Origin: Methanothermobacter tenebrarum
GTDB lineage: Archaea > Methanobacteriota > Methanobacteria > Methanobacteriales > DSM-23052
DNA length: 32,000 nucleotides
NCBI RefSeq assembly: GCF_023167465.1
Contig: NZ_AP025698.1
Location: 882,771-914,770, forward strand
Reading direction: 5' to 3'
Part shown: positions 1,864 to 27,542 of the stretch, piece after piece
Layout: each line of letters opens with the position of its first letter
Numbering within the stretch: position 1 is the stretch's first letter
The notes under the pieces: model-generated
Seen by the model: the letters and a program-made list of their open reading frames with translations, nothing else
What the model was told of the DNA's origin: nothing
Databases searched by the model: none
Made by a program: the position numbers and the translations under genes

Positions 1864-2387
1864 ACCTACATTATAAAAGGTTTTCTTGTAAATAAAGGTT
1901 ATTAGTAGTCCCCTTTAATTTGAAGAATATTCCAGAAGCTGGGCGGATAAAAATATTTTTGTGTCGTTGCATCCCTCAAGCCATTTTTTTATTCCATAAG
2001 AAAATCCTTGGAAGTTTATATTTTCTTACTTAGGGATCCTAGTCCTCTGGGGGGCTGTGAAGACGCGCAGTGATGATGTTATGCGAACTTTCGTCAATGG
2101 CCGGACAATGTATAGCAATTGCAGATCATGGAACTGACTATAGCATCCTTTAAAGAAGGTGGAGGATGGCATTCCCCAGAGAAGATAATCTCACTTATAA
2201 AATGGTCTCCAATAGTTGAATATTGTGATTTTTCAATATTTTTTTACAAATAAAACTTTGAAGCGTAAGTGACCGCCCTTCTTTTGTGGGGGGATTATAG
2301 CAACGTAAATAAGAACAAGTGCCCCCTCCCAAAACTGTGAAGTCGATTCTATGGAATGTAAGATTTGATGGGGGAGGTGATCTTCTT

Positions 2388-4175
2388 TCAGAAGGCGTCA
2401 CCGCCCCCGCCCATGTCACCGCCTCCAATATCTCCAATATCTCCAGTATCTCCTACAGTCTCATCAAATTCGATTTCAGTCGCTGTGCTCATACCTGTGG
2501 CTAAAGCACTGCTCAACAGTGCATATCCCCCATAATCGTGGAATACGTACATGTCATTTTCTTCTAGTTCTTGTTGTGGTAATTGGAATTTCATGGCTTT
2601 TATAACATTATCCGCTATCCCCAGGGCTGTTGCATAGACTAGATACTTGTTCCAGATTTCAACGGACTCTGGGGGGTACTCTTTTATCAAACTGAAATCT
2701 TTAAGGTATTTTTTGAAATTTTTCCATTTTTCAATGTGTTCTCTGCCCTCGCGTGTCCAATGTCCTGGTATATCCTCTGGTAGCAATATTGCTATTATTG
2801 AAGTTATCGCTAGTAATATTGACGCGAAAAATGGTAATCTTGCAAGTGGATCCTGTATTGTTAAAAAGGCTACTATAATGGCTAATGCCACCCCTATGAA
2901 ACCAAAGACTTTCATATATTTTGCACCTTTGTTTATGAATATCCTCCCTATTTTTTCTTTGTTTAAAAATTTAGTTTTGATGCTATTCTTCCACTTGTCA
3001 TAGACATCTTTAAAGTATCGGGCGTGACGTTTTTTTGATAGTTTCTTTGGGATTTCATCTAATTCTATTAGGTCACCTTTTTTGAATCTTCTTAGAAACC
3101 TCATCACATACATTTCAAAGTCTTCTAGACCCTTTTCCTTGTTGATTTTTAAAAATACTCTTTTAGTTTTCCCTTTTGTCCTGGTTTCTACTTTAAGATA
3201 GTTTCTATTTATTAAATCCATTATTGTGGCTTTGAATCCATTCATGTCAGGTTCGCCCACGCCTTTAAACACCTTAGAAGTGTATATGGCGTTTACTACC
3301 GCTGGCGGGTCATCGTATGGTATCTCATGTTCATAATCTGCCCTGTAGTCTATTTTCGGTTCTCTACCATACTTTAGGTATATCAGTAAAGGAGTGAAGC
3401 TAGCTATGAGTAATAAGATCCCGGTAAGGGAATACAAAATGTTTTTGAATGCTAGTTCTTCCTGGTATTTCTCTTGTTTGCCCTCTATTATAGCTAATGC
3501 ATCCTGGTTTATGATTGTCCCATTGGCTGGATTAGCCGCGAAATATTCTTTCGGTATGACCATTTCAACTTCAAAGAACTGACCAGCCGGTATGGTGTCG
3601 GCAGTGACCTCTAGTGTATTTCCTCGCCATTTAGAATCTTTCACATAATATGGTGGATTTAACCAATACTTTACTCCATCTTTTCTTGGAAGGTGTATCC
3701 TAGTGTTGACCTGGCCTATGGGGACTTTCCATCCTTCACCGATTATCTTGTAATGGAGTTCTGTTATGTCATTGTAAAATCTTAGTACGTTTATCGCATT
3801 ATATTCAAAAGTAACATTCACTCTTTGATCTGTGATCGGCTTTGTTAACCTTGGATCTGAATATAAATAGACTTTGATGTTTTGGATGTTATTTTCCTTT
3901 TCCACCTCACAGGATCCTACGTATGCACCATCAGCGGATACATTCAAGTTTTGGATGGCTTGACTGCCTCGAAGTGGTATTTCACGGGTTATTCCATTCC
4001 AAGTCCCATTGAATGAGTAATGTATTGTTTCTTTAACATGTATTGTCCCATCTTCTTTTAGGAAAAGTTCTGTGTCTATTGCTTGTATGGAATAACTCCT
4101 CTCTTGTATGAATGTAAAGGCCACTATAATTGCGCATAAAGCAGCCGTTATTATTATCAGGTTCCTTATTTTCAT
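2388..4175 (-). CDS. DUF2207-family membrane protein (595 aa)
   Basis: N-terminal TM anchor (IIITAALCAIIVAFTFI), a beta-rich extracytoplasmic domain, central and C-terminal TM helices, and a Gly/Asp-rich tail (GDTGDIGDIGGGDMGGGGDAF). It sits 10 nt downstream of a LemA gene, the usual LemA-DUF2207 pairing. Family call is from architecture and memory. Confidence 0.7.
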   Translation of the reverse strand: MKIRNLIIITAALCAIIVAFTFIQERSYSIQAIDTELFLKEDGTIHVKETIHYSFNGTWNGITREIPLRGSQAIQNLNVSADGAYVGSCEVEKENNIQNIKVYLYSDPRLTKPITDQRVNVTFEYNAINVLRFYNDITELHYKIIGEGWKVPIGQVNTRIHLPRKDGVKYWLNPPYYVKDSKWRGNTLEVTADTIPAGQFFEVEMVIPKEYFAANPANGTIINQDALAIIEGKQEKYQEELAFKNILYSLTGILLLIASFTPLLIYLKYGREPKIDYRADYEHEIPYDDPPAVVNAIYTSKVFKGVGEPDMNGFKATIMDLINRNYLKVETRTKGKTKRVFLKINKEKGLEDFEMYVMRFLRRFKKGDLIELDEIPKKLSKKRHARYFKDVYDKWKNSIKTKFLNKEKIGRIFINKGAKYMKVFGFIGVALAIIVAFLTIQDPLARLPFFASILLAITSIIAILLPEDIPGHWTREGREHIEKWKNFKKYLKDFSLIKEYPPESVEIWNKYLVYATALGIADNVIKAMKFQLPQQELEENDMYVFHDYGGYALLSSALATGMSTATEIEFDETVGDTGDIGDIGGGDMGGGGDAF

Positions 4176-4185
4176 TATATATCCC

Positions 4186-4749
4186 CTAAAATTTGACTTC
4201 TGGCACTTCTCGGGTACTTTCTTCTACTTGGAAGAATTCAGCCTCCTTAAAATTAAAAATAGAAGCGATTAAATTGCTTGGGATCATCTGACATTTATTA
4301 TTGTACATTAGTACCGTATCATTATAGAATTGGCGTGAATAGGCTATCTTATCCTCTAGTCCTTCTAGTTGTCCTTGTAATTCCAGGAAGTTTTCATTGG
4401 CCTTAAGATCAGGATAATCCTCTGCGACAGCGAACAAACTCTTCAAGGCACTGGTCAACATGTTATCGGCCTTTTCAACCTCCCTAACACTCTCAGCATC
4501 CATCAGAGCACTCCTAACCTTGGTAACATTTTCTAGTACACTTTTTTCATGCTTTGCATAACCTTTAACAGCCTCCACAAGATTGGGTACTAAATCCGCT
4601 CTCCGTTTAAGCTGGACATCTATCTGCGACCAAGCATTTTCAACCCTATTTCTAAACTGCACAAGGCTATTATATAAATATACAAAGTACACTAACAACA
4701 AAAATATAATAAGAACAATTATCATTGCAAATAACATTCCAAAGCCCAT
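4186..4749 (-). CDS. lemA: LemA family protein
   Basis: Single N-terminal TM followed by the LemA signature [44 protein letters not shown]...FYNDTV. Confidence 0.9.
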
Positions 4750-5923: not shown

Positions 5924-7414
5924 TTGTCTAAGAAGTATAAATTACTAAAGACTTTGACGATTAGAGAACTTAAAGAAATTTGTAGACGTTATGGTTTAAG
6001 GGGCTATTCTAAACTCAGACAAAAAGAACTAGCTCATTTTGTGGCTAAAAGTCTAGATTTATCTACAGAAGAAATAGAAAAGTTAGTTAGCAGTTTTTGG
6101 GATGATAGACTCATATCCAAGGTGAAAGATGCTGAAGACTACTTTTTAATGGACAATGTTGAAATAGAATATTTTGATGAAGATTTTATAAAAGCTCAAC
6201 TTGGAAGGCACGAAGTTAAAATCATCAATCTTGGAAAAAAAGATTTTAGGTACTATTGTGACTGCGATGATTATAAATACCAGGTCAAAAGGGGGAAATA
6301 TCCATTTTGTAAACACTATTCTGCAGTAATCGCTAAATTAATATATGAAGGTAAATTAGATGTTAAAAAGACACAACCTAATTTCATTTCCGGTAAAGTC
6401 TTAGATTCCTTGGAGGAGATAGTTGAAAATAGAAGAAGAGAAGATGGTATAATAATGCCACTGGGCAGAGATATTGAAAACAGCCTAAAAAATATTAAAA
6501 AAGATTTAGTCGAAATTTCTAAACAAAACGAGGAACTTGCCAGAAAAAAATATCATGAGCCCCCAGAAAAGGTCTTTGAATATTTGGTTGACCAAGCATT
6601 CCAGCTCCTAGAATATGAAACCATAACACAAAGGAGAGAGCAAGGATGGGACCTCCTAGTTATCGGCACCTACGCCCCAAAACCCTACATTGCAGTAGTG
6701 GAATGTAAAACAGCTAAATCAGGAATATACGACCATCTACTTCATAACCCCAATTATTTGATTCGCTTGAAAAATTATTGCATAGAGATGTGCAAAGAAA
6801 AACTAATAGGCGGATTCAAAGATTATGTAAAGTATATGGTGATCGTAGCACCTGATTTCCCCGAGGAAATAGTTAAATTCCAGTCCCAGTTTAAACAAAT
6901 GACAGGAGGCATCGAACTTTCATTTTTACCCGCCCCAACATTACTTTACATGGTGGAAAAATATCGGGAAAATCCAATATTAACCCATTATATATCAGAA
7001 TCCATCTTTAAACGTGGCGGGATAATTAAAAATGATGACGTTGACAAACTATTCTCAAAATCAGAGGAACACATACAAAGTATAATCGAAGATGTGAGAG
7101 ACTCCCTAAGATACCATATGAATGAAGTGTGCCAACGCCACACAGACGCTTGTTATATCAAAATAGATGATACATTCCTAAAAAGGATCATAGACAAAAT
7201 AATATCCACTCTAGACCCCTATCTACTCAAACAGGGAAAAGACGGGGTCACAGGCATGAAAACTATCAACATAAAACACGATTACTACAAATTATGGGAA
7301 AAAGTTTTAAATGCAGTAATCGAAGACTTTACAGAGAGGCTCAAAGAACAATCAACACTCCAAATCAAAAAATCAGACCTAAAAGAAAACATAATCAAAC
7401 AACTAGGAATCTAA
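5924..7414 (+). CDS. Rho_N/SAP-like + SWIM zinc finger + PD-(D/E)xK restriction-endonuclease-like protein (496 aa)
   Basis: TTG start with GGGGGG SD 7 nt upstream. The N-terminus LTIRELKEICRRYGLRGYSKLRQKELAHFV matches the Rho_N/SAP helix-extended-helix. CDCDDYKYQVKRGKYPFCKH (6257-6316) fits the SWIM pattern CxCx(n)CxH. FEYLVDQAFQLLEYE...GWDLLVIG...YIAVVECKTAKSG (D243, E260, K262; 6650-6709) is an Mrr-cat-like nuclease core. The C-terminal ~150 aa are unassigned. The gene looks AT-richer than its neighbours by eye. Confidence 0.75.
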   Translation: MSKKYKLLKTLTIRELKEICRRYGLRGYSKLRQKELAHFVAKSLDLSTEEIEKLVSSFWDDRLISKVKDAEDYFLMDNVEIEYFDEDFIKAQLGRHEVKIINLGKKDFRYYCDCDDYKYQVKRGKYPFCKHYSAVIAKLIYEGKLDVKKTQPNFISGKVLDSLEEIVENRRREDGIIMPLGRDIENSLKNIKKDLVEISKQNEELARKKYHEPPEKVFEYLVDQAFQLLEYETITQRREQGWDLLVIGTYAPKPYIAVVECKTAKSGIYDHLLHNPNYLIRLKNYCIEMCKEKLIGGFKDYVKYMVIVAPDFPEEIVKFQSQFKQMTGGIELSFLPAPTLLYMVEKYRENPILTHYISESIFKRGGIIKNDDVDKLFSKSEEHIQSIIEDVRDSLRYHMNEVCQRHTDACYIKIDDTFLKRIIDKIISTLDPYLLKQGKDGVTGMKTINIKHDYYKLWEKVLNAVIEDFTERLKEQSTLQIKKSDLKENIIKQLGI

Positions 7415-12252: not shown

Positions 12253-12462
12253 ATGTTCTTGGTTAAAGTAACAGAAATACTGGATGAGGCACACGACTTG
12301 GCCGAAAAGATAAAAAAGTACCGGAGCGAAGCCGAAAGCGAGATCATAGCATGTTGGGTCTATGATGTCATACTCACAATGGAAAAATTGGCCAAGATCG
12401 TTGAAGAACTACAAGATAGAGTAGATTTACTCGAAGAGGAACTAGAAGGTAAAAAATTCTAG
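12253..12462 (+). CDS. hypothetical small coiled-coil protein (69 aa)
   Basis: GGAGGGGG SD directly upstream, 10 nt after the DUF169 stop. Acidic helical sequence with no recognised family. Confidence 0.45.
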   Translation: MFLVKVTEILDEAHDLAEKIKKYRSEAESEIIACWVYDVILTMEKLAKIVEELQDRVDLLEEELEGKKF

Positions 12463-13091
12463 TTCCCAAATTTTATCTTTAGATAATCATCAAAGGTATT
12501 CAAGTTAATAAGTTCTATCTCATCTACAGGTCTTATAGCATACAAGCCTATACCATCTTCTACTAACCGCCAGAGTAATGGGTTGATATTACCCTTATAT
12601 GATGGCAGATACTCTAACAGGAGTTTCCTGGGGGCTGCGAATGGCATCCCAAGACCCCTCGGATTGTCTAAGCGGCCAAAGGACCCCCTCCCAAGGATCG
12701 ACACAGTATTATCTTCCAAGGCCTTGATTATCCTCTTGTAAGTTCTGGATGTGATTGTTGGCTGGTCTCCGGCAACGCAAAGACAAAAACGGCCCCTAGC
12801 ATTCTCCACACCATTTAATAATGAACCTGTCAATGGTAGATCATCTTGATTCTCCACAATTTTAACATCTAAGCTACTGATTACAGGGATTATATTATCC
12901 TTCTGGTGTCCAACAACGACAATACACTCATCCACACCAGCCTCTAGAACATTACTTATGGTCTTTTCTATCACTGTCCTATCGTCTAATTTGAGCAGTA
13001 ATTTATGTTTTGGTTTTAGGCCTCTTTTTTTCATGTCGGCCTTCATCCTTTCCCCTTTACCGGCTGCTGTTATAATCCCTGATACTCTCAT
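12459..13091 (-). CDS. MobA-like nucleotidyltransferase (NTP_transf_3 family)
   Basis: N-terminal GIITAAGKGERM (the GxxxAAGxSxRM-type NTP-binding loop), HKLLLKLDDRTVIEK, IVVVGH, and VAGDQP (the metal/NTP motif of MobA/MocA-type enzymes). It is the last gene of the minus-strand block, 7 nt after the preceding stop. Confidence 0.75.
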   Translation of the reverse strand: MRVSGIITAAGKGERMKADMKKRGLKPKHKLLLKLDDRTVIEKTISNVLEAGVDECIVVVGHQKDNIIPVISSLDVKIVENQDDLPLTGSLLNGVENARGRFCLCVAGDQPTITSRTYKRIIKALEDNTVSILGRGSFGRLDNPRGLGMPFAAPRKLLLEYLPSYKGNINPLLWRLVEDGIGLYAIRPVDEIELINLNTFDDYLKIKFGN

Positions 13092-13098
13092 GGTCTTT

Positions 13099-14274
13099 TC
13101 ACATTGGTACTAGTCTGAGGATCTTGGCATGTATCACCATGCTTGGACCCGAACCTCTGGTCCACATGATTATCATTATAGGATATTTACCGTCATTGTA
13201 TACTTTAACGTCTGTGGCTGGGTCGAAGCCATATATGAGTGCGAAGTATCCCCAGCTCATACCTGTGGGTGTGGGCAATCCTGCTTGTGCAACAGCATCC
13301 CTGAGGGCTCTTGCCGGTGGACACGTACCATGTGAAGCATAACCTCCAGGAGCCTTCGGGTCCCTGGATGAGGTGAACTGGACTGTATCTTTTCCGGGCG
13401 AACTCGTCCCGGGGGGTACTATAGTACCATTCCAGGCTTTTACGAATTCTTTTGCATTGTATTCCCTGGCTATATCATCATATTCGGGGTATGATTCAAG
13501 TTGGCTTGTGGCTTCTGCAACCTCCTCCACCCTATAATGGTGCATGTAGGCCATGATAGGGGCGCCCTCAGGGTATTCTTCCATGTACTTTTTTGTCCTT
13601 TCACCGAAGAACCTGGTTATGTCCTCTGGTGGTACTTCCAATCTCCCATCACTGAAATTAGACAGTGAAAAGTCTATAGCTATCCTATCACCCACCTTCG
13701 CTTCCTTATACCATTTTTCAAGTTCTGTTGCGTTTATATAATCAGAGGCCACATTACCTATCTCTTTAGGTGATAATCTCTTTATTGTCTTATTCTTCTC
13801 TACTATGACTATACCATCCTCTGTCTTAACCGCGTAAGTGTAGGGTGTCTTGTAAGCCCATATGAAGTTTGCTGGTGGTTGTACGACTAGTTTATCTCCT
13901 TTTATTGTTAGCATCCCTGGACCCTCAAATTCTGAGGCTCTCCCACCTGGCCCAACACCCTCTGTAATGTCCTTGATTGGTGTCATCATAGTCCCAGTAA
14001 GTAGGCCGTAGATGACCGCACCTATATCCCCGTCTTGTATGTTCTTTATCAGATAGTCTGGGTGTATGATCAGTGGTTCCTTCCTTATCCTTGCAGGGTC
14101 TGCTACTTGCATCTCAGCCACTACAGTACTCCCTATGGGTATCTTGCTTATCTCCTCAGGATCCTGTGGCGATGTCCTAGTGTGTAGATAATAGTCTAGT
14201 GGGGACATCACAACAACTATTAATATCAATAGGATTATCATGGTCCTAGGATCCCTTGAGGATGTCCTTAGCAT
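13099..14274 (-). CDS. membrane-anchored extracytoplasmic protein with VanW-like Cys-containing C-terminal domain
   Basis: N-terminal TM anchor MIILLILIVVVM; the likely start is ATG 14241, 4 nt after the upstream stop. The C-terminus PGGYASHGTCPPARALRDAVAQAGLP...YGFDPATDVKVYNDGKYPIMIIMW resembles the VanW-domain consensus as I remember it (GGGvCQvsTtLYnAal.aGL ... D.kF.Nd..yPilI). The single candidate catalytic Cys is Cys318 (codon 13321-13323). Confidence 0.6.
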   Translation of the reverse strand: MLRTSSRDPRTMIILLILIVVVMSPLDYYLHTRTSPQDPEEISKIPIGSTVVAEMQVADPARIRKEPLIIHPDYLIKNIQDGDIGAVIYGLLTGTMMTPIKDITEGVGPGGRASEFEGPGMLTIKGDKLVVQPPANFIWAYKTPYTYAVKTEDGIVIVEKNKTIKRLSPKEIGNVASDYINATELEKWYKEAKVGDRIAIDFSLSNFSDGRLEVPPEDITRFFGERTKKYMEEYPEGAPIMAYMHHYRVEEVAEATSQLESYPEYDDIAREYNAKEFVKAWNGTIVPPGTSSPGKDTVQFTSSRDPKAPGGYASHGTCPPARALRDAVAQAGLPTPTGMSWGYFALIYGFDPATDVKVYNDGKYPIMIIMWTRGSGPSMVIHAKILRLVPM

Positions 14275-15712
14275 ATTTATAGCCTCCTTCTCCTATTATT
14301 AGGATGGTATCATCTTCTTCTGCATATTCTAGGGCTTTTTGGATGGCCTCCTCTACTTGTCTCCTGCTGGCTCCTAATGTTCCCTGTTTTATTTTTTCCC
14401 TACTAGACCTTATATGTATGATTTTTGCCCTTGTATGTTCTGATGCCTTCCTTGCATTATATGATGCTGGTATTATGATGTCTGCATTTGAGAGTATCCT
14501 TGCTATCTCCCTGTCACCTTCTATTCCACTCTCAGAGGCTATTGTATTAACTACTATGATTCTCCCGGGGGTTTCTTCCTTTACAAGTTGCATTATAGCC
14601 CTGACACCAGCCGGGTTATGGGCATAATCTAGGATTATCCGCGGCTCTTCCTTTATTATCTCATGTCTCCCAGCAGCCCCCTTGAAGGAGTTTATACCCC
14701 TGATAATATCATCAGGGTCGATGCCAAGGGTTAGGCTCGCGGCAGCGGCCGCAAGACTGTTATAGACATTGAAAAGGCCGCCTGTCTTGAGTTTTATTGT
14801 CTCCTCTGCTATGTTTAATTTGAACTTGTCCTTTTCCACTTGGGTGGCTTTAACTTCCAACTCTGGCCTCCTATAACCGCATGTACAATAATAGTCTCCA
14901 AGGTGGCCTAGGAACCTCCTCTTATATTTTAGGGTTTTGTTACAGTATGGACATTCCCGGTTTTCTGGGAATACTTCAAAGTGGGATTTGAGGGATTCTA
15001 TACCATAGAATGTTATTCTGTCCCCGGGGAGGTTTTTGGCGAAACTTGCTACTATGGGGTCATCAGCGTTTAATATGATGTGCTGGGCGACGTCTATGAT
15101 CTCTTTTTTACATTCTATGTATTTTGGGAAATCTTCTGGTGGCAGATGATCCCTTGAAATGTTTGTTATAATAGCTATTTTGACTTTGCTGTCTGTGGCT
15201 GCCCCTTTTATTTCACCTGGTTTTCCGAATGTTCCTATCTCGACTACTGCTATGTCACCTTCTAGTCTTGCCTGTAGAGCTGGTATGAATTCTGTGTTTC
15301 CTTGGATGTTAAGATGATGTTCAGGGACCCTATACCCTGCAACTCTTAGTATGTTTTTTAGGATTTGTGTTGTGGTGGTTTTGCCGTTGGTTCCTGTGAC
15401 GCCCACGACCGGTTTTTTAACCTTGCAGGAGGCTATGATGTCCTGGACTGTTATGATCTTTTTGCCTTTTATGAGTTGGAGTATCCTCTCATTTTCTAGT
15501 AGACTTGGTGCTACCGCTATCTTATCAGCTTCTTTTATTATCTTGGGATTGTGGCCTCCAAGGTCTAATTTGATACCCTCTGCTTGGAAGATTCCGCGTA
15601 GGGGTGTTTGCTTGCGGATGTCTGATACTGTCACGGCATACTCTTTTGCTAGTATTCTGGCCATTAGGCTTCCTACCGTCCCACACCCCCCGAGTACTAC
15701 TATCTTCTCCAT
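14246..15712 (-). CDS. Mur-family ATP-dependent peptide ligase (pseudomurein-type, MurT-like Cys4 insertion)
   Basis: MurD-like Rossmann N-terminus IVVLGGCGTVG, P-loop GVTGTNGKTTTTQIL, TNISRDHL and DYAHNPAGV. A Cys4 ribbon CPYC...CTC (Cys254/257/276/278; 14879-14953) sits in the central domain. The start overlaps the upstream stop by 1 nt (15712). Confidence 0.85.
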   Translation of the reverse strand: MEKIVVLGGCGTVGSLMARILAKEYAVTVSDIRKQTPLRGIFQAEGIKLDLGGHNPKIIKEADKIAVAPSLLENERILQLIKGKKIITVQDIIASCKVKKPVVGVTGTNGKTTTTQILKNILRVAGYRVPEHHLNIQGNTEFIPALQARLEGDIAVVEIGTFGKPGEIKGAATDSKVKIAIITNISRDHLPPEDFPKYIECKKEIIDVAQHIILNADDPIVASFAKNLPGDRITFYGIESLKSHFEVFPENRECPYCNKTLKYKRRFLGHLGDYYCTCGYRRPELEVKATQVEKDKFKLNIAEETIKLKTGGLFNVYNSLAAAAASLTLGIDPDDIIRGINSFKGAAGRHEIIKEEPRIILDYAHNPAGVRAIMQLVKEETPGRIIVVNTIASESGIEGDREIARILSNADIIIPASYNARKASEHTRAKIIHIRSSREKIKQGTLGASRRQVEEAIQKALEYAEEDDTILIIGEGGYKYAKDILKGS

Positions 15713-17259
15713 TATCGGTTCTCCTTGTAATCTTCTATAGCCCTTTTTATGTCCATTTTAACGTTCTTGTAGGCGTTAACAACCCCCGGGCCCATGTGGA
15801 TTATCGTATCCCCTTCCTCGGATTCTTCCAGGGCTTTTTTGATGGATTTGTAGACGTTTTCTACTATTATAGTCTTTGTGGGGTTCGCCCCCTCTGCTAC
15901 TTCCCCGGCCGCCTTCCAGTCTATTTCTTCTGTTGTTTCATTCTTGGCGCTTACAATGAGCAGATCAGCCGCCCTTGCAAGTGTTTTACCTATCTTGAAT
16001 TTATCCCTCACCGTTAATGTGTCGGGGTTGTCAAGGCTTATTATAAGCCTGCCATCAAATCCCAAGCCCTCGAATAACTTCTCCATACTCTCAGGGTTGT
16101 GGGCGGCGTCCATATAAACTTTAACACCATCAACTTCGTCTATGACCTCGAAACGTCCCCTTATACCCTTGAACTCGCCTATCCGCTCCTTTAGATAATC
16201 CATGTCAAAGCCTAGTATGAGTCCTGTTGTAATGGCCGCTAGTGCATTCTCCACATTGAATATCCCAGGAACCTGTAAGCTGACCCTTTCCTTGTATGGT
16301 CCAACATATACACGTTTAAAATCTCCACATTCACATTCTATGCTTTTACATTTTTCACATATGAGTGTGGGTATTCTCCCGGTTGTGAAGGTGAACTCTG
16401 ACCCCATCAGACCCTTTAATTTGATTTTCTCGGCTTTAACATCAGCTGGTATGGGTTTTGTCACATAGCTTCTACCATGGAATTCAACCCGCCTTTCTCT
16501 GCCAATGCTATAGATTATATGAGGTGATCCTATCTCATCTGTGAATGTGTTTATTATAGGATCGTCCCCATTGAGTATGAGCAAGCCCCTCTCCTTGATA
16601 AGATCCTTGATAAGGAGGTTTCGCCTTATATAATCATCATAGTCCCTGAACTCATCAAGGTGATCTGGAGTGAGCGTGGTTATGATACCAGCACATAATT
16701 CTAGGCCCTGCGTCATCCTTATGGTACCATGAGGCAGTTCAAAAACTGCAAATTCGCCCTCACCCAATCTACCCTCCACCAGCAAATCAACTAAACCTTC
16801 AATGACAAGTGAATCCTCCAATGATGAAAAAGAGATTGTAGGGTGTTTCCCTTCTATGATATGTTTTATCATGTTTGTGGTTGTGGTTTTACCATCTGTG
16901 CCAGCCACCCCAACCATTGGGATGTTAATAAAAGAGTTGAGCATACTCCCAATCATAGAAGGCGTTATATATTCAATCTCCCTATTTTTTACTAATCTAT
17001 AGATTATTGAATTTTTTGGGATGTTAGGTGAGATGAAGATGGCCTCAGCCCATTCTATCTCCCGGGGATGATGCCCCCCAAAATGGAACCTTATACCATC
17101 CTCGCGCATCCTTTCTATCCTCTTTCTGGCCTTTGAGGGTAATTCCTCGAATTCTTTGATTTCTGTGACTAGCACTTCATTGCCAAGGTGATGTAATAGT
17201 TTTGCAGCGGGCCTGCCAGCATTCCCCGCACCAACCACTAGTATTCTCTTATTCTTCAT
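15712..17259 (-). CDS. Mur-family ATP-dependent peptide ligase (pseudomurein-type)
   Basis: Rossmann ILVVGAGNAGRPAA, P-loop GVAGTDGKTTTTNMI, TTLTPDHLDEF and DAAHNPESM. Cys cluster CEKCKSIECEC (Cys301/304/309/311; 16327-16359). 4-nt ATGA overlap with the upstream gene at 17256-17259. Confidence 0.85.
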   Translation of the reverse strand: MKNKRILVVGAGNAGRPAAKLLHHLGNEVLVTEIKEFEELPSKARKRIERMREDGIRFHFGGHHPREIEWAEAIFISPNIPKNSIIYRLVKNREIEYITPSMIGSMLNSFINIPMVGVAGTDGKTTTTNMIKHIIEGKHPTISFSSLEDSLVIEGLVDLLVEGRLGEGEFAVFELPHGTIRMTQGLELCAGIITTLTPDHLDEFRDYDDYIRRNLLIKDLIKERGLLILNGDDPIINTFTDEIGSPHIIYSIGRERRVEFHGRSYVTKPIPADVKAEKIKLKGLMGSEFTFTTGRIPTLICEKCKSIECECGDFKRVYVGPYKERVSLQVPGIFNVENALAAITTGLILGFDMDYLKERIGEFKGIRGRFEVIDEVDGVKVYMDAAHNPESMEKLFEGLGFDGRLIISLDNPDTLTVRDKFKIGKTLARAADLLIVSAKNETTEEIDWKAAGEVAEGANPTKTIIVENVYKSIKKALEESEEGDTIIHMGPGVVNAYKNVKMDIKRAIEDYKENR

Positions 17260-18458
17260 TGTCCCACCATTTTTTCTATATTTTCTTGGATCTTTATGAT
17301 CTTTTCTTGTCCATTACCCCCTATGAGTATCCTATTGTATTCTCTGCTAAAGTCTTCCAATAATTTGATGAGTTCATCAGTGTCTTTTACAATTAAAACC
17401 TTTGAGGGCAGTTCCTTTGCACATTTTAGGGCGATATCTGTCGTATCTTCGAGGCCTGGGAATAATACCAGTATCCTGGGGGGTTTTTTGCCTATTTCTT
17501 GTAGTGTTTCGAATCTCCAGTTTTCGTTTCTTCTTGGGGTTCCGAGGAATATTATATCAAAAAGAGTTTCTTGTAGTATGGTTTTCATGGCTGAAGGATT
17601 GTCAATCTTTCCTATGATTATATTTGCCTTATTAAATTTATAAGTTTGTATACGCCCCCTTGGGGCTTCAAATTCTCCCAAGACGGAGTCTATTATACTC
17701 TTGGGCGTGCCAAGTAGTTGAGTTGCTTTCGCGGCCGCGCCGGCATTTAATTTGTTGAATTCTCCAAATAATCTGATTTGACCATCATATGGACCGTATA
17801 GTATTGACTTTGGGGTTTTTAATTGTAATGATAATGGGTCTTCTCTGTTGAGCAGGGCCCTTTTATCTTTTAGGAATCTTCTGAGGCTCTCTTTGTAGTT
17901 TTTGATGGTTTTATGGTGGTTCATGTGGTCTCTGCCTATGTTAGTTAAGATTACAAGGTCTAGGTTGAAGCATTGATCTGCGAAATCTAATGTCATGTCG
18001 CATATTTCCACGACTATAATGTCATACTTTTTCTCTGTGGCTTGTAATATGAGTTCTGTGTAACCTTGGAATCCTCCCCCAGCATTACCCCCTACTAGGA
18101 CCTTCTTACCCCACTTTTCCAATATTTTTGTTATCATGAGGGCTGTTGTTGTTTTGCCATTGGTTCCTGTGACCCCTATTGTATATGTGTCCTTATAGTC
18201 CCCTATGATGTTACAGATTAGTTTGTCTTCTATTTCCTCTTTGAGTGGTGTGTTGTAGAGGCTTGGACTTAATGTTACAATGTCACATGCTTTTATTTTT
18301 TCCATGTCATGGAAGCCCAGGTCTACTTCAACATCCTCTAGACCCTCTAAATTCAGATTAGTGTTGATGTCGGTGGCGTATACTTTGTATCCACGTTTTC
18401 TAAGTGATTTCACGGCTTTTCTGCCTTCGACGCCTAATCCTATCACTGCGGCTTTCAT
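17256..18458 (-). CDS. Mur-family ATP-dependent ligase, MurD-like (short, 400 aa)
   Basis: Rossmann AAVIGLGVEGRKAV, P-loop GVTGTNGKTTTALMI and TNIGRDHMNHH. GGTG SD 6 nt upstream of the ATG. The start lies only 24 nt after the rad50 stop. Confidence 0.85.
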   Translation of the reverse strand: MKAAVIGLGVEGRKAVKSLRKRGYKVYATDINTNLNLEGLEDVEVDLGFHDMEKIKACDIVTLSPSLYNTPLKEEIEDKLICNIIGDYKDTYTIGVTGTNGKTTTALMITKILEKWGKKVLVGGNAGGGFQGYTELILQATEKKYDIIVVEICDMTLDFADQCFNLDLVILTNIGRDHMNHHKTIKNYKESLRRFLKDKRALLNREDPLSLQLKTPKSILYGPYDGQIRLFGEFNKLNAGAAAKATQLLGTPKSIIDSVLGEFEAPRGRIQTYKFNKANIIIGKIDNPSAMKTILQETLFDIIFLGTPRRNENWRFETLQEIGKKPPRILVLFPGLEDTTDIALKCAKELPSKVLIVKDTDELIKLLEDFSREYNRILIGGNGQEKIIKIQENIEKMVGQ

Positions 18459-18482
18459 TGTGACACCAATGAGAATATTTTT

Positions 18483-20996
18483 TTATCCGGTTTGAATTGT
18501 GGAGATCCCGGCATTTTTTTCTACTGTGAATGTATGGTCTGCTAGGTTTTCTAGTTCTTCTTCATGGGATACTATTATTATCTGTGAACATTCCAATTCT
18601 TCTAGTATTTCTCTGAATTTTAGGAGCTGTTCTTTGCTGAATCCGTCCGTTGGCTCGTCTAATATGAGCATGTCTGATTTTATTGTGGAGTATCTTTGAA
18701 TAATGGTGTTTAGTGCTAGTCTATAGGCTAGTGCTACGCTTGTTTTTTCTCCTCCGCTGAGGTGTTCCAGTTCTTGTTCATAGCCTCCTTGTTCTATTAT
18801 GGGTGTGAAGTTTTCATCTATCCTTACAGTTTTTTCGTTATCTTCTACGAGTTTTTGGAACCAGCGCTGGAAGTGGCTGTTGAATTCCTGGTTTATTTGT
18901 GTCATTACATGGGTTTCGATGTCGCTTAATGTTGGTATGAAGTATTCTTTGAGCCATTTAACATACTCTTTTAATTTTTTTATGGACCTTTTTATTCTTT
19001 CCCTTTCTTTTATTTGTTCTTCCAAGTCTTTGATTTCCTCTTTTATCCTTTTGAGCGATCCAATGTTCCTTTCACGTTCTCTTTCACATTCTCTTATCTT
19101 TTCCATGGCATGGTCGAGGCTGTTCTTTGTTTGGTCTCTTTTCTCTTCTATTTCATCCTTTTTCTCCAGTATTTTGTCTAATTTTTTGATTTCTTCCCTG
19201 ATGGTTTCTATTTGGCCTGTTTTTTCCTTTATGATTTTTTTGTTTTCTTGGTATTCCATGTTCTTGGTTGGTTTTAGTTTTGTGATCATTTCCTGGTGAT
19301 GCTTTATGGATGCTTTTATGTTGGCTATTTTTTCTTTCAGCGCGTCCCTTTCACCCTCTAAACTTTCTTTTTCTGTTTTGAGTCGTCTCATCTCATCTGG
19401 GATGGTTGATTTTGTGCTTATCCTCTCTTCCAGGCTCTTTTTCATCCTTTTTATCTCTTTTGTTTTTTCTTGGATCTTCTTTATTGTTTTATCGTTTTTT
19501 TGACGGTTTTGCTCCATATCTTCTAGTTTTTCTTTGAGGATTTCTAGTTCTCTTTTAGCGTTTTCGTATTCTCTTATTTTTTCTTTGAGGTTCTTGTTTT
19601 CTCTTATTCTTTTAGTGTATTCTTTTTTCATTTTTTCAAGTTCTCTTTTCTGCTTTTGTTTTTCTTTGAGTTTCTTTTTGATCTTGGATGGGTTGACTGG
19701 GGCTCCGCATGTTGGACAGGTTTTTTCTTCTTTTATTGAGGAGTAATCCTTTATCTTAGCGTTAACTTCCCCTATTTTTTCCTCTGCTATCCCCTTTTTT
19801 CTTTCATATTCCTCTATGATTTCTTCGATTTCTCTTAGACTCTTATTGGATGGTTTTTTAATCTCCTCTAGGCTTTTGATTCTTTTGATGGTCTTGGATT
19901 GCTCCTCTTTGATTTTTTTGTTGTCTTCTTGGATTTCCTGGAGTCTTTCTAGATGTTCATGCTCTTGTTTTTTCAAGTTTTCTAGTTGGTTTTTATCTAG
20001 TAGTATGCTCTCATAGTCTTCTCGTATACCCTCTATTCTATTTTCCACCCCTTCGAGGGCCTCCTCTATCGCTTTTAGTCTTTTTTCCTCTTCGAATTTC
20101 TCCTTTTTCTCTTCGTCCATTTCTAGGATGTGTCTTCTATATTCTTCCTCTATTTTCTCGTTTTTCTTCTCTGCTTCTTCTATCTGCTCACTTATAATGT
20201 TGATTTTCTCCATTAGACTCTTTTTCCTGTTCTCAGCGTCTTTGATGTTATCGTATCTTCTTTCAAGTTCTGCAAGATCATTCTCTATGATTTTCCTCTT
20301 CTCTTCCAGTTTTTTCTTCTCATCTTCTATTTTTTCAATTAAAAGCTTGTACTTGTCTATTTCACGTTTTCTATCATCCATCTTATCCTTTAACATTGGA
20401 AGGTCATGTACTCTCCCTTCAAGCCTATCAGCCTTTCTATCAATCCGAGCCGCCACCATATCAGCGTTAGTGGCGGCTATATTATAATCCTCCAATCCTA
20501 GAGCCCTTCTAATGGTTTCAAGCCTCTCTTTAGAATTCATACTTATTATCTTCTTCATCTCCTCCTGTGGCGTGAAAACAGCATACCTGTAAATGCGACT
20601 CTTTGCACGCGGATTCAAAGGCTCATTATACTTCAATATCCTGAGTATCGTATCCTTCATCTCCGTCGGGGGCAGGTTCATCCTACCATTCTCTGTCTCA
20701 ATATAACACCTATCCTGGCTTATACTCCCATCACTCCTCCTAAGACTCCTATAACTAGTATAGGTTTTACCATCCACCTGGAATGTGAGGGAAACATAAC
20801 CACTATTTGAACCCAGACGGAGCAAACCAGCCCCCCGCTGACCCCCCAGGCCGAAAAGGGCGAATTCAACCGCTAAGAGTAATGTTGTCTTACCAGAGCC
20901 TATATCCCCCTTAAAAAGTGTGACACCATCAGAAAAGCTGATCCTCGCCTCCCGGTAACTTCGAATATTCTTAAGTTCCAAGGATTTAAGGATCAT
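18483..20996 (-). CDS. rad50: DNA double-strand break repair ATPase Rad50
   Basis: Walker A GDIGSGKTTLL, a long K/E-rich coiled coil with the central zinc hook CPTCG, signature LSGGEKTSVALAYRLAL, and Walker B MLILDEPTDG. Confidence 0.93.
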   Translation of the reverse strand: MILKSLELKNIRSYREARISFSDGVTLFKGDIGSGKTTLLLAVEFALFGLGGQRGAGLLRLGSNSGYVSLTFQVDGKTYTSYRSLRRSDGSISQDRCYIETENGRMNLPPTEMKDTILRILKYNEPLNPRAKSRIYRYAVFTPQEEMKKIISMNSKERLETIRRALGLEDYNIAATNADMVAARIDRKADRLEGRVHDLPMLKDKMDDRKREIDKYKLLIEKIEDEKKKLEEKRKIIENDLAELERRYDNIKDAENRKKSLMEKINIISEQIEEAEKKNEKIEEEYRRHILEMDEEKKEKFEEEKRLKAIEEALEGVENRIEGIREDYESILLDKNQLENLKKQEHEHLERLQEIQEDNKKIKEEQSKTIKRIKSLEEIKKPSNKSLREIEEIIEEYERKKGIAEEKIGEVNAKIKDYSSIKEEKTCPTCGAPVNPSKIKKKLKEKQKQKRELEKMKKEYTKRIRENKNLKEKIREYENAKRELEILKEKLEDMEQNRQKNDKTIKKIQEKTKEIKRMKKSLEERISTKSTIPDEMRRLKTEKESLEGERDALKEKIANIKASIKHHQEMITKLKPTKNMEYQENKKIIKEKTGQIETIREEIKKLDKILEKKDEIEEKRDQTKNSLDHAMEKIRECERERERNIGSLKRIKEEIKDLEEQIKERERIKRSIKKLKEYVKWLKEYFIPTLSDIETHVMTQINQEFNSHFQRWFQKLVEDNEKTVRIDENFTPIIEQGGYEQELEHLSGGEKTSVALAYRLALNTIIQRYSTIKSDMLILDEPTDGFSKEQLLKFREILEELECSQIIIVSHEEELENLADHTFTVEKNAGISTIQTG

Positions 20997-22252
20997 AAAA
21001 GATCACCCAAAAATTTCTCAATTGACAATACCCTCAAAGCATCCTTGAACATCCCATCCTCGTAATCAACCTTCCGCTCATTTGGTTTCCTAGCCCGCCT
21101 CAAAACAGCTAAAAGTTCCATGGCAACATCAACATCACATTCCCTGAGAACATCCAAATTCTCCCTGTTCTCCCTGAAAAGGCTCTTTTCAACCTGTGGA
21201 ACATCCTCCATCCTAACCCTTATCCGCCTCCTCTCACGGCGCCTGAGACCATGACGGTTTATATTAACATGTAAAGCACCCCTATCCACGAGCAAATCCC
21301 TTATCCTTATGGGGTCTATATCGGCCGTTTTACCCGATGAAAGCTCCCCCCTGATCTTCACCATAACAATCTTATCATCCACATCAGAAAATTGAAGATC
21401 GGAGATTATATCATCCATAGCCTCCTGGGAGCTTTTACCCGTAACATTATATTCAAAATAGGCATATTCAACAAGATCCAATGGCAGGAAACTCACATCC
21501 TGGACAGTATCATCAAATTCCACAATATAGAACCCCCGCTTTTTACCCTTAGCATTCGCTTCAAGATCAGTTGCATATGATCCAAACAATGGCCCAGGAT
21601 AGACTATCCAACCATGATCTTCCACATGCTTTTCTATCTTTTCATGTAGATGGCCTCCTCCATAATAGTCAAAACCCCGGGGGAAGAGGCTCAATGGGAT
21701 AGATTCCATCTCCGATAGATATGCCGGTTTAAATTCTGTTATGGCACTATGAAAAAGGAATATCTTAAACCCTTCCTCGGATTCTATGGAGGCCCTGTCA
21801 AGATATTTGAACTGTTCTATTTCCATGTTCATTTTACGGGCTGATATACCCGTAAGCTTAGCCCCAGTCACCGGATCCGAAGTAAAATCAAGGACATACC
21901 TATTTTCTTCCGGGCGGATTCTGTCAACCCTTTTTAATAAGCCTGCACTTTCAAGCACGTCGATCATTGATGTCCTAGTTGGACTGTAATCATGACTCCC
22001 ATAACATGTATATACCGGTATTTCCTCCTCCTTCAAGCCCTTAAGTATTTTAGCAACTTCCTTGACAACTTCCATATTGGGTATGTTAGAATGGAACAGA
22101 TCCCCTGATATTATGATAAAATCAACACCCCTCTTGCAAGATCTCTTGATGGCCCCCTTGAAACTTTCAACTTCTAGTCTTTTAAGTTCTGTGTATCTGT
22201 GGGCTCCAAGGTGGCAGTCTGCTAAATGGGCGAACTTGTACACGTATTTCAC
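20993..22252 (-). CDS. mre11: DNA double-strand break repair nuclease Mre11
   Basis: Calcineurin-like phosphoesterase motifs [18 protein letters not shown] and GGGHLH. 4-nt overlaps with both herA and rad50. Confidence 0.92.
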
Positions 22253-23823
22253 CTTACCAGTTCTTCGTAGGATAAGAGTGGGGGTTTATCCTCCCCTTTA
22301 TTTACTTTTTCCTGGGCATGTTCTTCGAAGAGTGGTATTTTAATGGGTACTGCGAATTTCGTGAATATACTCGTCACTATAGCCTCCCCCCGGTCAAGGC
22401 TTGCTATTGTCCGATTATCATCTGAAAGATCCTGTGAAGCGCTTGCTATTATCTCAGCCCGCTCTTGTGACATTTCATTTCCTAGGATTATCTTCGTGTT
22501 CATATTCGCGAGTATAGTCCTGGGGATCAGGCTTACAAGTTGTGTTATGGCAACGAGTCCTATGTTGAATTTCCGACCTTCCCTTGCAACTGTACTGTAA
22601 ATGTTGTGGCCTTGTTTTTCTATAACCTCTTTTCCAAGGACCCTTGGGGCTTCCTCTATAACTATACCGATTATGGGCTTCTCTTCTAGGGTGCCGTCTG
22701 CTTTGTATTTTTGGTATTTGTTGAATATTGCCCCGACGATTATGCTACCTACTAGTAGTTCTGCTTCGCCCATAAGCCTTGAAGTGTCTATTATAACGAT
22801 TTCACCAGCTTCTAGGGATTGTATAACCTCTTTGATGGTTGAATCCCCAGCATCTGTCGTGAAAACACCCCCACGAGACTTTAATCGGCCATTCTCCTCG
22901 TAGATGCCTAGTATATTATCGAATTTCCTCTGCAGGACGCTGAGTGTGCTGGGACGCACCTTTTCCTTATCTCCTTCCTGGTCATCAACTCTTTCCCCTG
23001 TTATAATCTTCTGTATCCAATCTTCTCCGAATTTGTTATGGTAAAGTTTTATCGCATCCTCTTGGGCGCTTGTAAACTCGACTATGCCATCGAAATGTTC
23101 TGGTCTTATGGATTTAAGGTTTATGTTAAGGGAGTATGCCATGCCTTCAACTTTTGAAGCGTCGGGGGTGTAATATTTAAGTTTTTCTTGGTTGGGATGG
23201 TCCTTCAGTCCTAGTTCGTTTCTCCCATAGTATTCGTCGTGTGGGTCGAGGACTAGCATGCCTATGTTTTCTATGTCCATGAGTTCCCAGAGCATCACCT
23301 TTACTAGGTTGCTCTTGCCCCTACCTGTGGTGGCTGGTATAAGGATATGGTGTGGTATAGCTTCTCTGGCATTAACGTGTATCCTTGTTTTAAGTTCCTT
23401 TGAGCCGCTTCTCACATTACCCAAGTAGAGGGGGTCTTCTGTTTCCTTTTTTAAAAATTTGAGATCATCATCTCTTATACGTCTTACCTGATTGAAGAAT
23501 CTTGGTAGTGTCTTGGGTAGTTGTGGTCTACCATCTTGTATTTGGAGTATGGTTTTGGCTTCTGCGATTATATAATTTCTAAGTTCCTCGTCTAGGAATT
23601 CTAGCTGGGAGCCGCTTTTTTCGAGTTGGATCCCCGAGGCGAGTTCTCTCATGATCTGTGGGACTTGTGAATTGTAGATCAGATCCTTTACTTGTAGGAT
23701 GCTATAGTTATTATCGTCCTCTTCTGCAACTAGCAGGTCTCCAAGTTCTATCCTTGAACCGCTCCTTTCCCTTATAAAAACCTTTGAAGTTTCTCCTCCT
23801 ATGATCTGTCCTATAATGTCGAT
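22249..23823 (-). CDS. herA: HerA hexameric DNA helicase/translocase (FtsK-HerA superfamily)
   Basis: Walker [11 protein letters not shown] and Walker [13 protein letters not shown]. The first ATG is at 23652, but the frame stays open to 23859. The 57 codons between 23823 and 23653 encode a typical HerA N-terminal HAS-barrel ([32 protein letters not shown]...). No ATG, GTG or TTG exists in that stretch. ATC at 23823-23821 lies 8 nt downstream of a GGGGGG SD. Confidence 0.85.
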
Positions 23824-23831
23824 CTTGGATT

Positions 23832-23837
23832 CCCCCC
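23832..23837 (-). promoter_or_regulatory. Shine-Dalgarno-like GGGGGG run overlapping the nurA stop, serving herA
   Basis: The minus strand reads TAGGGGGGAATCCAAGATCGACATTATAGGA. The G6 run begins with the G of the nurA TAG. In-frame ATC follows after 8 nt and ATT after 14 nt. The same G-rich SD type precedes other genes here, for example 5909-5915. Confidence 0.5.
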
Positions 23838-24907
23838 TATCTAGGCTTTTTATCCTTGATCATGGCTATCATGTTCAGTCTTTCATGGGCGTCAAGCGCC
23901 CTTATATGATATTTCAACTCTTCCAGTGTGTCCCCTGATAACCCTGATAATATACTTGTCTTGTATATGTTCACCTCATCCATACGTACCCTCGCGTTAA
24001 GGTCGGCGTCTATGAGACCATACGGGTAGCCTGGGAATGTAGCATCAACTGTATTCTCCCCAATGGCGGATATTATCTCGAGTTCGTCATCTTGATTGAG
24101 AAGGTCTAATCTGAAAATGTAATCTGAGAGTTCATGTAATTTAACAATCATTATCTTTATATTATATTCCTTCACCTTTTTAGTGGGCTTTGTAGGATAA
24201 TACCATCTTTTATAATTGATATCCTTCGCCAATCTCCCAATGGAGGCTATTAGGGAATCCCCGGCTGGTGTGGGTAATGTGCACGTTTTTGAAAGGCCTG
24301 CGAGGTTAACCCCCATCCTATCAGCAGTTTCTAATATTCTGTGGAGGTATTTACGCTCTCCTTCGAATGATGTATCCAGTGAACCATCCTTCACGAGTAT
24401 GTCACCCTCATCGAGTTCTTCTTCTATTATATGGGTGCTGAAGCTCCACTCCGCGAACCTTCGAGCCACTGAGAACATTCTACTTCGCTGGTAGAAATCT
24501 GGGGGTCCTGGGAGCGTTACTGTAAGATCCTCCTCCACTGGCAGATACTTTCTATGCTCTTCTAGGAGTGGGAATATCTTCACTTTACCTACTTGTCCAT
24601 CCTCTGAATCATGGACACTAAGATAAGAGAAAAACTCTATCTTTTCAGGTACCCTGGAGGGTCTTTGACGTTTCTTACCCCTGAAAAGATTGAAATACAC
24701 TCTATTTACTTGTAGGGAGAATCTTGGAGCCTCCAATATAGTGTTATTCCCGCCGTCGACGAACGCCATTAAACGGGGTTCAACATCATCCTTAAGGGGT
24801 TTGAAATAATCTCCATGAGAATTATAGACTTCATAATCCCCCAACTCCCCTATATTCTCTCTAACCTCTCTTTCAAGGGTTTTAATTACCTTTTCCAAGG
24901 CCCCCAA
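23837..24907 (-). CDS. nurA: NurA 5'-3' nuclease
   Basis: NurA-domain motifs around [11 protein letters not shown] and [11 protein letters not shown], a size of 356 aa, and a position immediately upstream of herA-mre11-rad50. Confidence 0.8.
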
Positions 24908-27065: not shown

Positions 27066-27542
27066 TTGAAGAAGCTGAGCATTCTATTAGCACTCGTTAT
27101 GGTATTTGCTGGGATGGGTATTGGGGCAGCGGCTTCAGTATTTTATACCGTGAATGCTCCCATGCCCACAGAAAAGAGCACACCATATACAGCGCCTATA
27201 ACCCTTAATAAGACCATGCAGATAAAGTACATGATAAAGGATAATACGACCAAGTATGGGATAATCAACCATGAGATAACCAAAAAGAAGAATCAGACAG
27301 TATTCCCACTGATATCATTCAATGGTACAGTAGCTTCGTTAATTTTCCCTGAAAATCTAACTGTGTATTATACTGTGAATGGTAAACAACCAACAAATAA
27401 AAGCGCAATCTATACTTCCCCTATAATCTTGGACAAGAACATGATCATTAAATACTTGATAGTCAGTAACAACACAACATACACGGGGATAGTCAAGCAC
27501 ACACCATGTAAATTCGGCAAGGGGTGCAATTTAAGAATGTAA
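27066..27542 (+). CDS. small secreted/anchored protein with two tandem CHB_HEX_C-like (Fn3-associated) repeats
   Basis: Signal/anchor MKKLSILLALVMVFAGMGIGAAA. There is an internal duplication, YTVNAPMPTEKSTPYTAPITLNKTMQIKYMIKDN versus YYTVNGKQPTNKSAIYTSPIILDKNMIIKYLIVSN, resembling the YYTxDGSxPxxxSxxYxxPI motif. TTG start. Confidence 0.6.
   Translation: MKKLSILLALVMVFAGMGIGAAASVFYTVNAPMPTEKSTPYTAPITLNKTMQIKYMIKDNTTKYGIINHEITKKKNQTVFPLISFNGTVASLIFPENLTVYYTVNGKQPTNKSAIYTSPIILDKNMIIKYLIVSNNTTYTGIVKHTPCKFGKGCNLRM

Follow-up and report, generated by a model that had tools for sequence, protein, structure and literature searches.

The closest described systems are the VanW-domain proteins, which act as Cys-dependent L,D-transpeptidases (LDTs) with a Cys-His-Asp triad and also have carboxypeptidase activity, as reported for Ldt4 and Ldt5 of Clostridioides difficile; of seven VanW proteins from outside C. 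difficile that were assayed, only three had LDT activity, which counts against a transpeptidase reading of PmurA (PMC11348318). For pseudomurein, neither a PBP-like nor any other transpeptidase is known (PMC10117817). As the preliminary description of the present locus had supposed, the cross-linking enzyme of this polymer is still to be identified, and only transglutaminases have been postulated for the step (PMC2812497, PMC10117817, PMC11915815), the best candidates of Lupo et al. 2025 being transglutaminases that are unlinked (PMC11915815).

The gene family considered here, PmurA, has already been catalogued in comparative-genomics papers, which that description had suspected. It is Mfer335 in Subedi et al. 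2021, where every pseudomurein Gene Cluster 1 contained it and a phosphoryl-transfer role was suggested (PMC10117817), and OG0001147 in Lupo et al. 2025, where its entry shows neither an InterPro prediction nor a signal peptide, and 0 transmembrane (TM) segments (PMC11915815). Glutamate phosphorylation was proposed for PMurA in a 2026 paper, in which the recombinant protein degraded ATP to ADP and AMP and Glu-phosphate was not detected (PMC12996149). The published guess for its role is that of a cytoplasmic glutamate kinase. In the full-text literature open without subscription, we found nothing that links VanW, LDTs, or transpeptidases to PmurA or to pseudomurein. What is new here is the VanW-like homology of PmurA and its reading as an outside-facing thiol enzyme, which conflicts with the published kinase/NTPase proposal.

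The PmurA gene and its neighbors

We analyzed a window of 32,000 nucleotides from Methanothermobacter tenebrarum (contig NZ_AP025698.1, positions 882,771–914,770 of the forward strand); all coordinates below are those of this window. It encodes a full-length member of the PmurA family in the canonical ligase–PmurA–PmurB synteny. The protein matches NCBIfam NF053640 ("Mfer335 family protein PmurA") with 537.3 bits against a cutoff of 400 (E 1.8e-161), over residues 16–390 and model positions 1–378. Its gene is part of a minus-strand block in the order pMurD2, pMurD1-like, pMurC-like, PmurA, and PmurB, with the following features:

17256–18458, minus strand: pMurD2 Mur-type ligase (NCBIfam NF053647, 573 bits against a cutoff of 550)
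15712–17259, minus strand: pMurD1-like Mur-type ligase (Pfam Mur_ligase_M and Mur_ligase_C; top NCBIfam match pMurD1, 352 bits, under the cutoff of 610)
14246–15712, minus strand: pMurC-like Mur-type peptide ligase, directly upstream of PmurA (Pfam Mur_ligase_M and Mur_ligase_C; top NCBIfam match pMurC, 517 bits, under the cutoff of 560)
14283–14287, minus strand: Shine-Dalgarno-like GGAGG, lying in the 3′-terminal part of the pMurC-like gene (sequence inspection)
13099–14274, minus strand: PmurA/Mfer335-family ORF, 391 aa (ORF list and translation; NCBIfam NF053640)
12459–13091, minus strand: PmurB/Mfer334-family MobA-like nucleotidyltransferase (NCBIfam NF053639, 274 bits against a cutoff of 260; Pfam NTP_transf_3)

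The three ORFs upstream of PmurA had been taken for Mur-type ligases, and they are members of that family. The 391-aa ORF had also been described as following the third ligase with essentially no spacer; its 5′ end shares 29 nt with the 3′ end of the ligase ORF at 14246–15712. On the other side, 7 nt lie between its stop codon and PmurB. A spacer of 8 nt separates the GGAGG at 14283–14287 from the ATG at 14274, which supports Met1, and not Met12, as the start of PmurA. All operon partners of PmurA are cytoplasmic enzymes, an observation that counts against a wall enzyme.

Distribution and synteny of the PmurA family

A word-indexed search returned 224 PmurA homologues, and when 1.84 billion representatives were searched exhaustively with an HMMER profile, 65 clusters emerged, all of the PmurA family, with nothing outside it and no bridge to VanW. 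Among 185,579 species genomes, 157 PmurA relatives were detected. The best 80 of these 157 carry Methanobacteriales-type or unresolved archaeal labels, bar one metagenome-assembled genome labelled Methanomicrobiales, and the closest are Methanothermobacter-like, with 83% identity. The most divergent full-length homologue, P0134, is 30% identical and is encoded on contigs with 62% G+C, a high value that would be consistent with Methanopyrus. The family is confined to Methanobacteriales and one high-GC lineage, and to pseudomurein producers only (see also PMC10117817), and the restriction anticipated in the preliminary description is borne out by the labels of the best 80 of 157 relatives, by the 65 clusters in 1.84 billion representatives, and by the published survey.

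The coupling to peptide-ligase genes also extends beyond this window: Mur ligase, PmurA, and PmurB follow one another in this order, on a single strand, in nearly all of the 80 loci from the best 80 of the 157 relatives. In the P0134 lineage the gene is not beside Mur genes; AHGCCPPARALR is retained all the same.

Predicted topology and domain layout

Hydropathy, an AlphaFold2 (AF2) model (pLDDT 90.4, pTM 0.82), and profile alignments divide PmurA into the following parts:

14242–14274, minus strand: cytoplasmic tail, residues 1–11 (predicted topology)
14185–14241, minus strand: N-terminal signal-anchor helix, residues ~12–30 (Kyte-Doolittle; AF2 helix 9–33)
13489–14172, minus strand: N-terminal ectodomain, residues ~35–262, mixed beta/alpha fold (AF2 pLDDT mostly 85–97)
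13102–13482, minus strand: divergent VanW-like domain, residues 265–391 (hhalign, AF2 secondary structure)

The anchor reaches a 17-residue Kyte-Doolittle maximum of 2.5, and its flanks are charged +2 on the N-terminal and −2 on the C-terminal side. Since these flanks obey the positive-inside rule, we predict with good confidence that the protein is external, with a type II (N-in/C-out) topology and its bulk outside. In all 80 PmurA members of at least 385 aa, taken as full-length, we found one strongly hydrophobic N-terminal segment with an N flank more positive than the C flank; the single anchor and wall-facing bulk proposed for the window protein are thus predicted throughout this set.

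The predicted topology bears directly on the published view, according to which PmurA would be a cytoplasm-facing, ATP-using enzyme that starts UDP-Glu stem-peptide synthesis by glutamate phosphorylation or phosphoryl transfer. The role proposed in Subedi et al. 2021 (PMC10117817) would suit an operon in which the Mur ligases and the nucleotidyltransferase PmurB are cytoplasmic, as well as the 0 TM segments predicted in Lupo et al. 2025 (PMC11915815), and the degradation of ATP to ADP and AMP by recombinant PMurA keeps the proposal alive, the undetected Glu-phosphate in the same study speaking against it (PMC12996149). The anchor with positive-inside flanks in 80 of 80 members, however, puts the bulk of the protein outside, and the conserved core is VanW-like (see below). 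A Walker A motif occurs in just 3 of 132 sequences, at non-homologous sites, and neither a kinase or NTPase match in Pfam nor a sequence or fold match in the PDB, Foldseek included, was obtained. With motifs and fold both missing, we rejected a kinase or NTPase assignment, and a cytoplasmic ATP-dependent role appears improbable.

The absence of a signal peptide and of TM segments from the OG0001147 entry (PMC11915815) is a separate observation that counts against a wall enzyme. Several PmurA database entries (372–375 aa) begin at a Met inside the anchor helix, and such internal-Met starts may account for the "0 TM" in the Lupo et al. 2025 table.

The N-terminal ectodomain has no relatives in Pfam, the PDB, or BFVD. 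Large and unexplained, this region (residues 35–262) could bind another partner, in which case PmurA might be a Cys transferase that uses some other acceptor or donor, for example to anchor proteins or secondary polymers on pseudomurein or to modify the lipid-linked precursor before polymerization. A precedent exists in the YkuD-type L,D-transpeptidases, which also link Braun lipoprotein to peptidoglycan. Besides the ligases and PmurB, however, no conserved neighboring gene encodes a candidate substrate, and we assign such a role a low probability.

A remote VanW-like domain at the C terminus

In the preliminary description, the C terminus of PmurA had been aligned with a VanW consensus. The PmurA sequence quoted there is exact, and the consensus given there agrees with the one derived from 40 real PF04294 proteins (GGGICQVSSTLYNAAxxAGLEI ... 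DFKFxN....P..I). Standard profile searches gave weak signals. An hmmscan of the window ORF against Pfam returned no match at E ≤ 0.1, and the best scores of PmurA against Pfam VanW (PF04294) were 12–14 bits, far under the gathering threshold of 27 bits. VanW was nevertheless the sole Pfam family matched by more than one PmurA member (7 of 30 at E ≤ 10, best E 0.012). Two partial matches to the VanW profile, the family consensus at positions 2–36 and the window protein at positions 100–121, are collinear.

Profile–profile comparison did pick up the relationship. We aligned 40 diverse PF04294 proteins (VanW/YoaR set), retrieved with VanW-like seed sequences that were themselves kept out of the alignment; every protein in it came from the database with a PF04294 annotation. 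With hhalign, PmurA residues 265–386 aligned to residues 7–144 of a Paenibacillus VanW protein with 95.0% probability (E 3.6e-8, 119 columns), and larger alignments raised this to 96.2% (E 2.2e-9; 114–119 columns over both runs). The match extends over the entire VanW domain. The real score of 64 compares with 12.8 ± 2.4 (maximum 20.1) in 150 column shuffles, i.e., ~21 SD over the shuffled controls, and with 12.3 for a reversed alignment; the resemblance is far beyond chance. Against VanW-B accessory proteins alone, the hhalign probability was 1% (E 0.055) and the match was limited to the first helix and strand; this subfamily is too narrow and divergent, and the diverse VanW/YoaR set was needed.

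Predicted secondary structures agree with this alignment. When a VanW protein was modelled independently with AF2 (pLDDT 82), three-state secondary structure agreed with that of the PmurA model at 71% of aligned positions, compared with 33–35% in slid controls, and in both models the central helix has the nucleophile Cys at its N-cap (PmurA helix 318–330, VanW helix 68–81). A sequence/profile search of the PDB with the PmurA family gave no match, and a Foldseek search of PmurA against the PDB and BFVD found nothing better than E 0.1; the fold search is uninformative on VanW because the PDB holds no VanW structure and a bona fide VanW model likewise finds nothing.

From these comparisons, the C-terminal ~125 residues of PmurA are, with high probability, remotely homologous to the VanW domain. 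The original VanW assignment therefore stands as remote homology by hhalign, with Cys318 on the catalytic Cys, and not as Pfam membership (12–14 bits against 27) or as a conserved triad, whose His and Asp are missing.

Conserved residues and a putative re-wired active site

The positions most relevant to catalysis are the following:

13300–13335, minus strand: signature S314-H-G-T-C-P-P-A-R-A-L-R325 (conservation in the family)
13330–13332, minus strand: His315, invariant in true homologues
13321–13323, minus strand: Cys318, aligned with the VanW catalytic Cys
13195–13197, minus strand: Asn360, present in 132 of 132 PmurA sequences and paired by hhalign with an Asn that is invariant in the "kFkN" strand of VanW

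The Cys318 codon lies where it had first been placed. Across 132 PmurA sequences, W281, P319, and N360 are found in all, and R270, N273, H315, G316, C318, R322, and R325 in 131 each. The sole exception at position 318, an apparent Ser in P0136, was rejected as a real variant, as P0136 is a fragment without homology over this stretch; the conservation of Cys318 across orthologues, left open in the preliminary description, is complete at 131 of 131 true homologues. In 79 of the 132 sequences Cys318 is the only Cys, and therefore has no disulphide partner. H315 precedes Cys318 by three residues, R322 and R325 follow it at one and two turns of the helix, and H315, R322, R325, and N360 are retained even in the 30%-identical P0134.

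Several of these residues pair with landmarks of VanW in the hhalign alignment: R270 and N273 with the R..N of the first VanW helix, P288-G289 (PPG) with the PGE turn, G316 with G67, C318 with the catalytic C69 of the VanW protein P0316, and N360 with N118, invariant in 40 VanW proteins. The remainder of the VanW triad is not preserved. The catalytic His (H92 of P0316, invariant in the same 40 proteins) falls in an 8-column gap of the PmurA alignment, and the catalytic Asp (D104, GxDA) is aligned with PmurA position 343, which is variable across the family (E/H/Y/F). The VanW triad is thus not the active site of PmurA. D305 was considered as a triad Asp and rejected, being not conserved in the divergent P0134.

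The loss of both the VanW His and Asp could mean that PmurA keeps the VanW fold and has lost enzymatic function, serving as a non-catalytic wall-binding or scaffolding protein. Against this, Cys318, H315, R322, R325, and N360 are invariant across 30%-identical lineages in mostly single-Cys proteins. Site-specific chemistry at Cys318 is favored because invariance at this level of divergence is hard to explain otherwise. Given this pattern of invariant residues, both a non-catalytic scaffold, to which we would assign only a slim chance, and the transferase with another acceptor or donor considered above are less likely.

Comparison with known cysteine enzymes

PmurA and the VanW LDTs (PF04294; C. 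difficile Ldt4/Ldt5) share an N-terminal membrane anchor followed by an extracytoplasmic catalytic domain (predicted for PmurA), and both are encoded in cell-wall contexts. The two are collinear through an R..N helix, a PG turn, a G-x-Cys helix N-cap, an L..A..aG[LF] segment, and the k[FV]xN and P[IV]xI strands, with the nucleophile Cys and the invariant Asn aligned. PmurA differs in scoring under the Pfam threshold, in the deletion of the His-bearing segment, and in a non-conserved Asp. GGGxCQ of VanW is replaced by SHGxCP, with an invariant His and two Arg of its own, the beta-hairpin that precedes the Cys is reduced, and instead of PG4 or G5 domains PmurA has an unrelated ectodomain of ~230 residues. 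Its setting also differs, as PmurA is archaeal and would face an all-L isopeptide substrate, whereas VanW LDTs act on an L,D bond. PmurA may belong to the VanW superfamily as a branch found in archaea, with its active site re-wired.

YkuD-type L,D-transpeptidases also rely on Cys/His chemistry, with an [ST]-H-G-(x)-C signature. The superficial likeness of the PmurA signature to this motif was treated as convergent or coincidental: the fold context differs in the model, which places the PmurA Cys at a helix N-cap. YkuD membership was rejected, with no YkuD Pfam match at E ≤ 10 in 30 PmurA members.

The transglutaminase-fold enzymes of pseudomurein, i.e., the PeiW/PeiP endoisopeptidases and the OG0000044 candidates, resemble the role proposed for PmurA in that they are Cys enzymes acting on extracellular pseudomurein peptides. 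Membership in the transglutaminase-core or papain-like (PeiW-type) families was likewise rejected, in the absence of any Pfam match at E ≤ 10 and of any PDB fold match. The transglutaminase candidate genes are unlinked to pMur clusters, in contrast to PmurA, which is linked in nearly all of the 80 loci. Separately, the other pseudomurein-specific extracellular candidates, the transglutaminases (OG0000044) and a Sortase E (OG0001178), could carry out the cross-linking instead.

Proposed function and mechanism

Taken together, we propose that PmurA is an extracytoplasmic, thiol-dependent acyl-transfer enzyme acting on pseudomurein stem peptides, and we put the probability of this reading at roughly 0.5. 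Going beyond the homology, conservation, predicted topology, taxonomic restriction, and synteny documented above, we infer catalysis, substrate, the roles of the His, Arg, and Asn residues, and a cross-linking or hydrolytic outcome. Cys318, at a helix N-cap as in VanW, would attack the carbonyl of the residue before the terminal amino acid of the donor stem; this terminal residue would leave, and a thioacyl-enzyme would form on Cys318. The invariant His315 might act as the general base, replacing the VanW His whose segment is deleted in PmurA, Arg322 and Arg325 on the same helix as Cys318 could bind the acidic stem peptide, and Asn360, common to VanW, may support the active site. If the amine of a neighboring stem, on the Glu-to-Lys link, resolved the thioacyl intermediate, a cross-link would result. 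Tentatively, and with less confidence than in acyl transfer as such, we suggest that PmurA is a pseudomurein cross-linking transpeptidase with Cys/His chemistry that shares a common ancestor with bacterial VanW LDTs. In this reading the last residue of the pentapeptide, which is Ala or, in M. ruminantium, Thr, would be released and a Glu-Lys bond formed between peptides. The cross-link of the preliminary description, drawn from the Lys epsilon-amino group to Glu, was not among its supported points.

If water instead of an amine resolved the intermediate, the outcome would be carboxypeptidase trimming. PmurA could accordingly be only a wall-remodelling hydrolase, either a carboxypeptidase that trims the terminal residue or an endopeptidase that opens cross-links for growth. 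Such an enzyme would use the same VanW-like Cys scaffold, Ldt4 and Ldt5 are themselves also carboxypeptidases (PMC11348318), the lost VanW His and Asp could have shifted the chemistry, and the published candidates for cross-linking are transglutaminases. The one-copy linkage of PmurA to a biosynthetic ligase operon is nevertheless more in keeping with a core step of synthesis than with remodelling, and we regard a role restricted to hydrolysis as unlikely, if not negligibly so.

Significance for pseudomurein biology

The extracellular cross-linking step of pseudomurein has been an open question since the pathway was drafted around 1990. PmurA is a signature gene of the pseudomurein cluster and has so far been treated as a possible cytoplasmic kinase. 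Its predicted wall-facing topology, VanW-type domain, and invariant Cys, the lone one in most members, redirect the hypothesis on its function, and the old question becomes directly testable. With this result, the newly recognized superfamily of VanW transpeptidases would reach Archaea in a form whose active site is re-wired, and it bears on whether the murein and pseudomurein machineries have a common origin. If PmurA is indeed a transpeptidase, then, beyond the Mur-type ligases, the final cross-linking enzyme of these archaea would also share ancestry with the bacterial murein machinery, and PmurA would be a thiol enzyme open to specific drug targeting in methanogens of the rumen and gut, and a methanogen-specific target for methane mitigation.

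Genomic setting of the pMur operon

Upstream of the pMur operon, on the same strand, lies a block of DNA-repair genes (window 18459-24907, - strand), and only 24 nt separate it from the start of the operon downstream. Co-transcription of the repair genes with those for wall synthesis is possible.

DNA-repair block
23837-24907, - strand, NurA
22249-23652, - strand, HerA
20993-22252, - strand, Mre11-like phosphoesterase
18483-20996, - strand, Rad50-like ATPase

Within the operon itself, two of the three Mur-type ligases scored below their NCBIfam equivalog cutoffs. For the pMurD1-like ORF, the NCBIfam match was split into two separate stretches, and this low score distributed over two stretches suggests an insertion or divergence.

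Ligases below NCBIfam cutoffs
15712-17259, - strand, pMurD1-like ORF (352 bits vs cutoff 610)
14246-15712, - strand, pMurC-like ORF (517 bits vs cutoff 560)

Elsewhere in the window, a GT4 glycosyltransferase adjoins a DUF2207 membrane protein and a LemA family protein (709-4749), all three being possible envelope-related neighbours. The 496-aa ORF had no Pfam match at E ≤ 1e-5. The domain type repeated in the 158-aa ORF is typical of surface proteins.

Other ORFs
709-1863, + strand, GT4 glycosyltransferase
2388-4175, - strand, DUF2207 membrane protein
4186-4749, - strand, LemA family protein
5924-7414, + strand, 496-aa ORF, TTG start
27066-27542, + strand, 158-aa ORF, two CHB_HEX_C_1 / Fn3_assoc repeats

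PmurA gene models and homologues

Many database models of PmurA homologues (372-375 aa; e.g., P0035, P0045, P0057, P0116, and P0120 in alignment A1) place the start Met inside the N-terminal helix and thus lack the anchor. Such models may explain why OG0001147, the corresponding orthologous group, is listed with 0 TM segments by Lupo 2025 (PMC11915815). Among full-length homologues, P0134 has diverged furthest (30% identity; loci L001, 6001-7179, L002, and L003), but retains the H-G-x-C-P-x-x-R-x-L-R motif. Its gene is not adjacent to Mur genes; a TP_methylase gene lies upstream of it, and a gene for a MoaA-like radical SAM protein lies downstream, as does AlaRS. Contigs bearing P0134 have a G+C content of 62%, and may represent Methanopyrales.

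PmurA beside known and candidate Cys-transpeptidases

By eye, the S-H-G-x-C signature of PmurA (window 13300-13335, - strand) resembles [S/T]-H-G-C, the motif at the active site of L,D-transpeptidases of the YkuD type. Since no YkuD profile match was obtained for 30 family members (Pfam, E ≤ 10), this likeness probably reflects convergence or coincidence. Another pseudomurein-specific orthologous group, OG0001178 "Sortase E", is placed in a different conserved cluster with an MreB/DnaK-like protein (PMC11915815, Table 1), and represents a second candidate Cys-transpeptidase beside PmurA.
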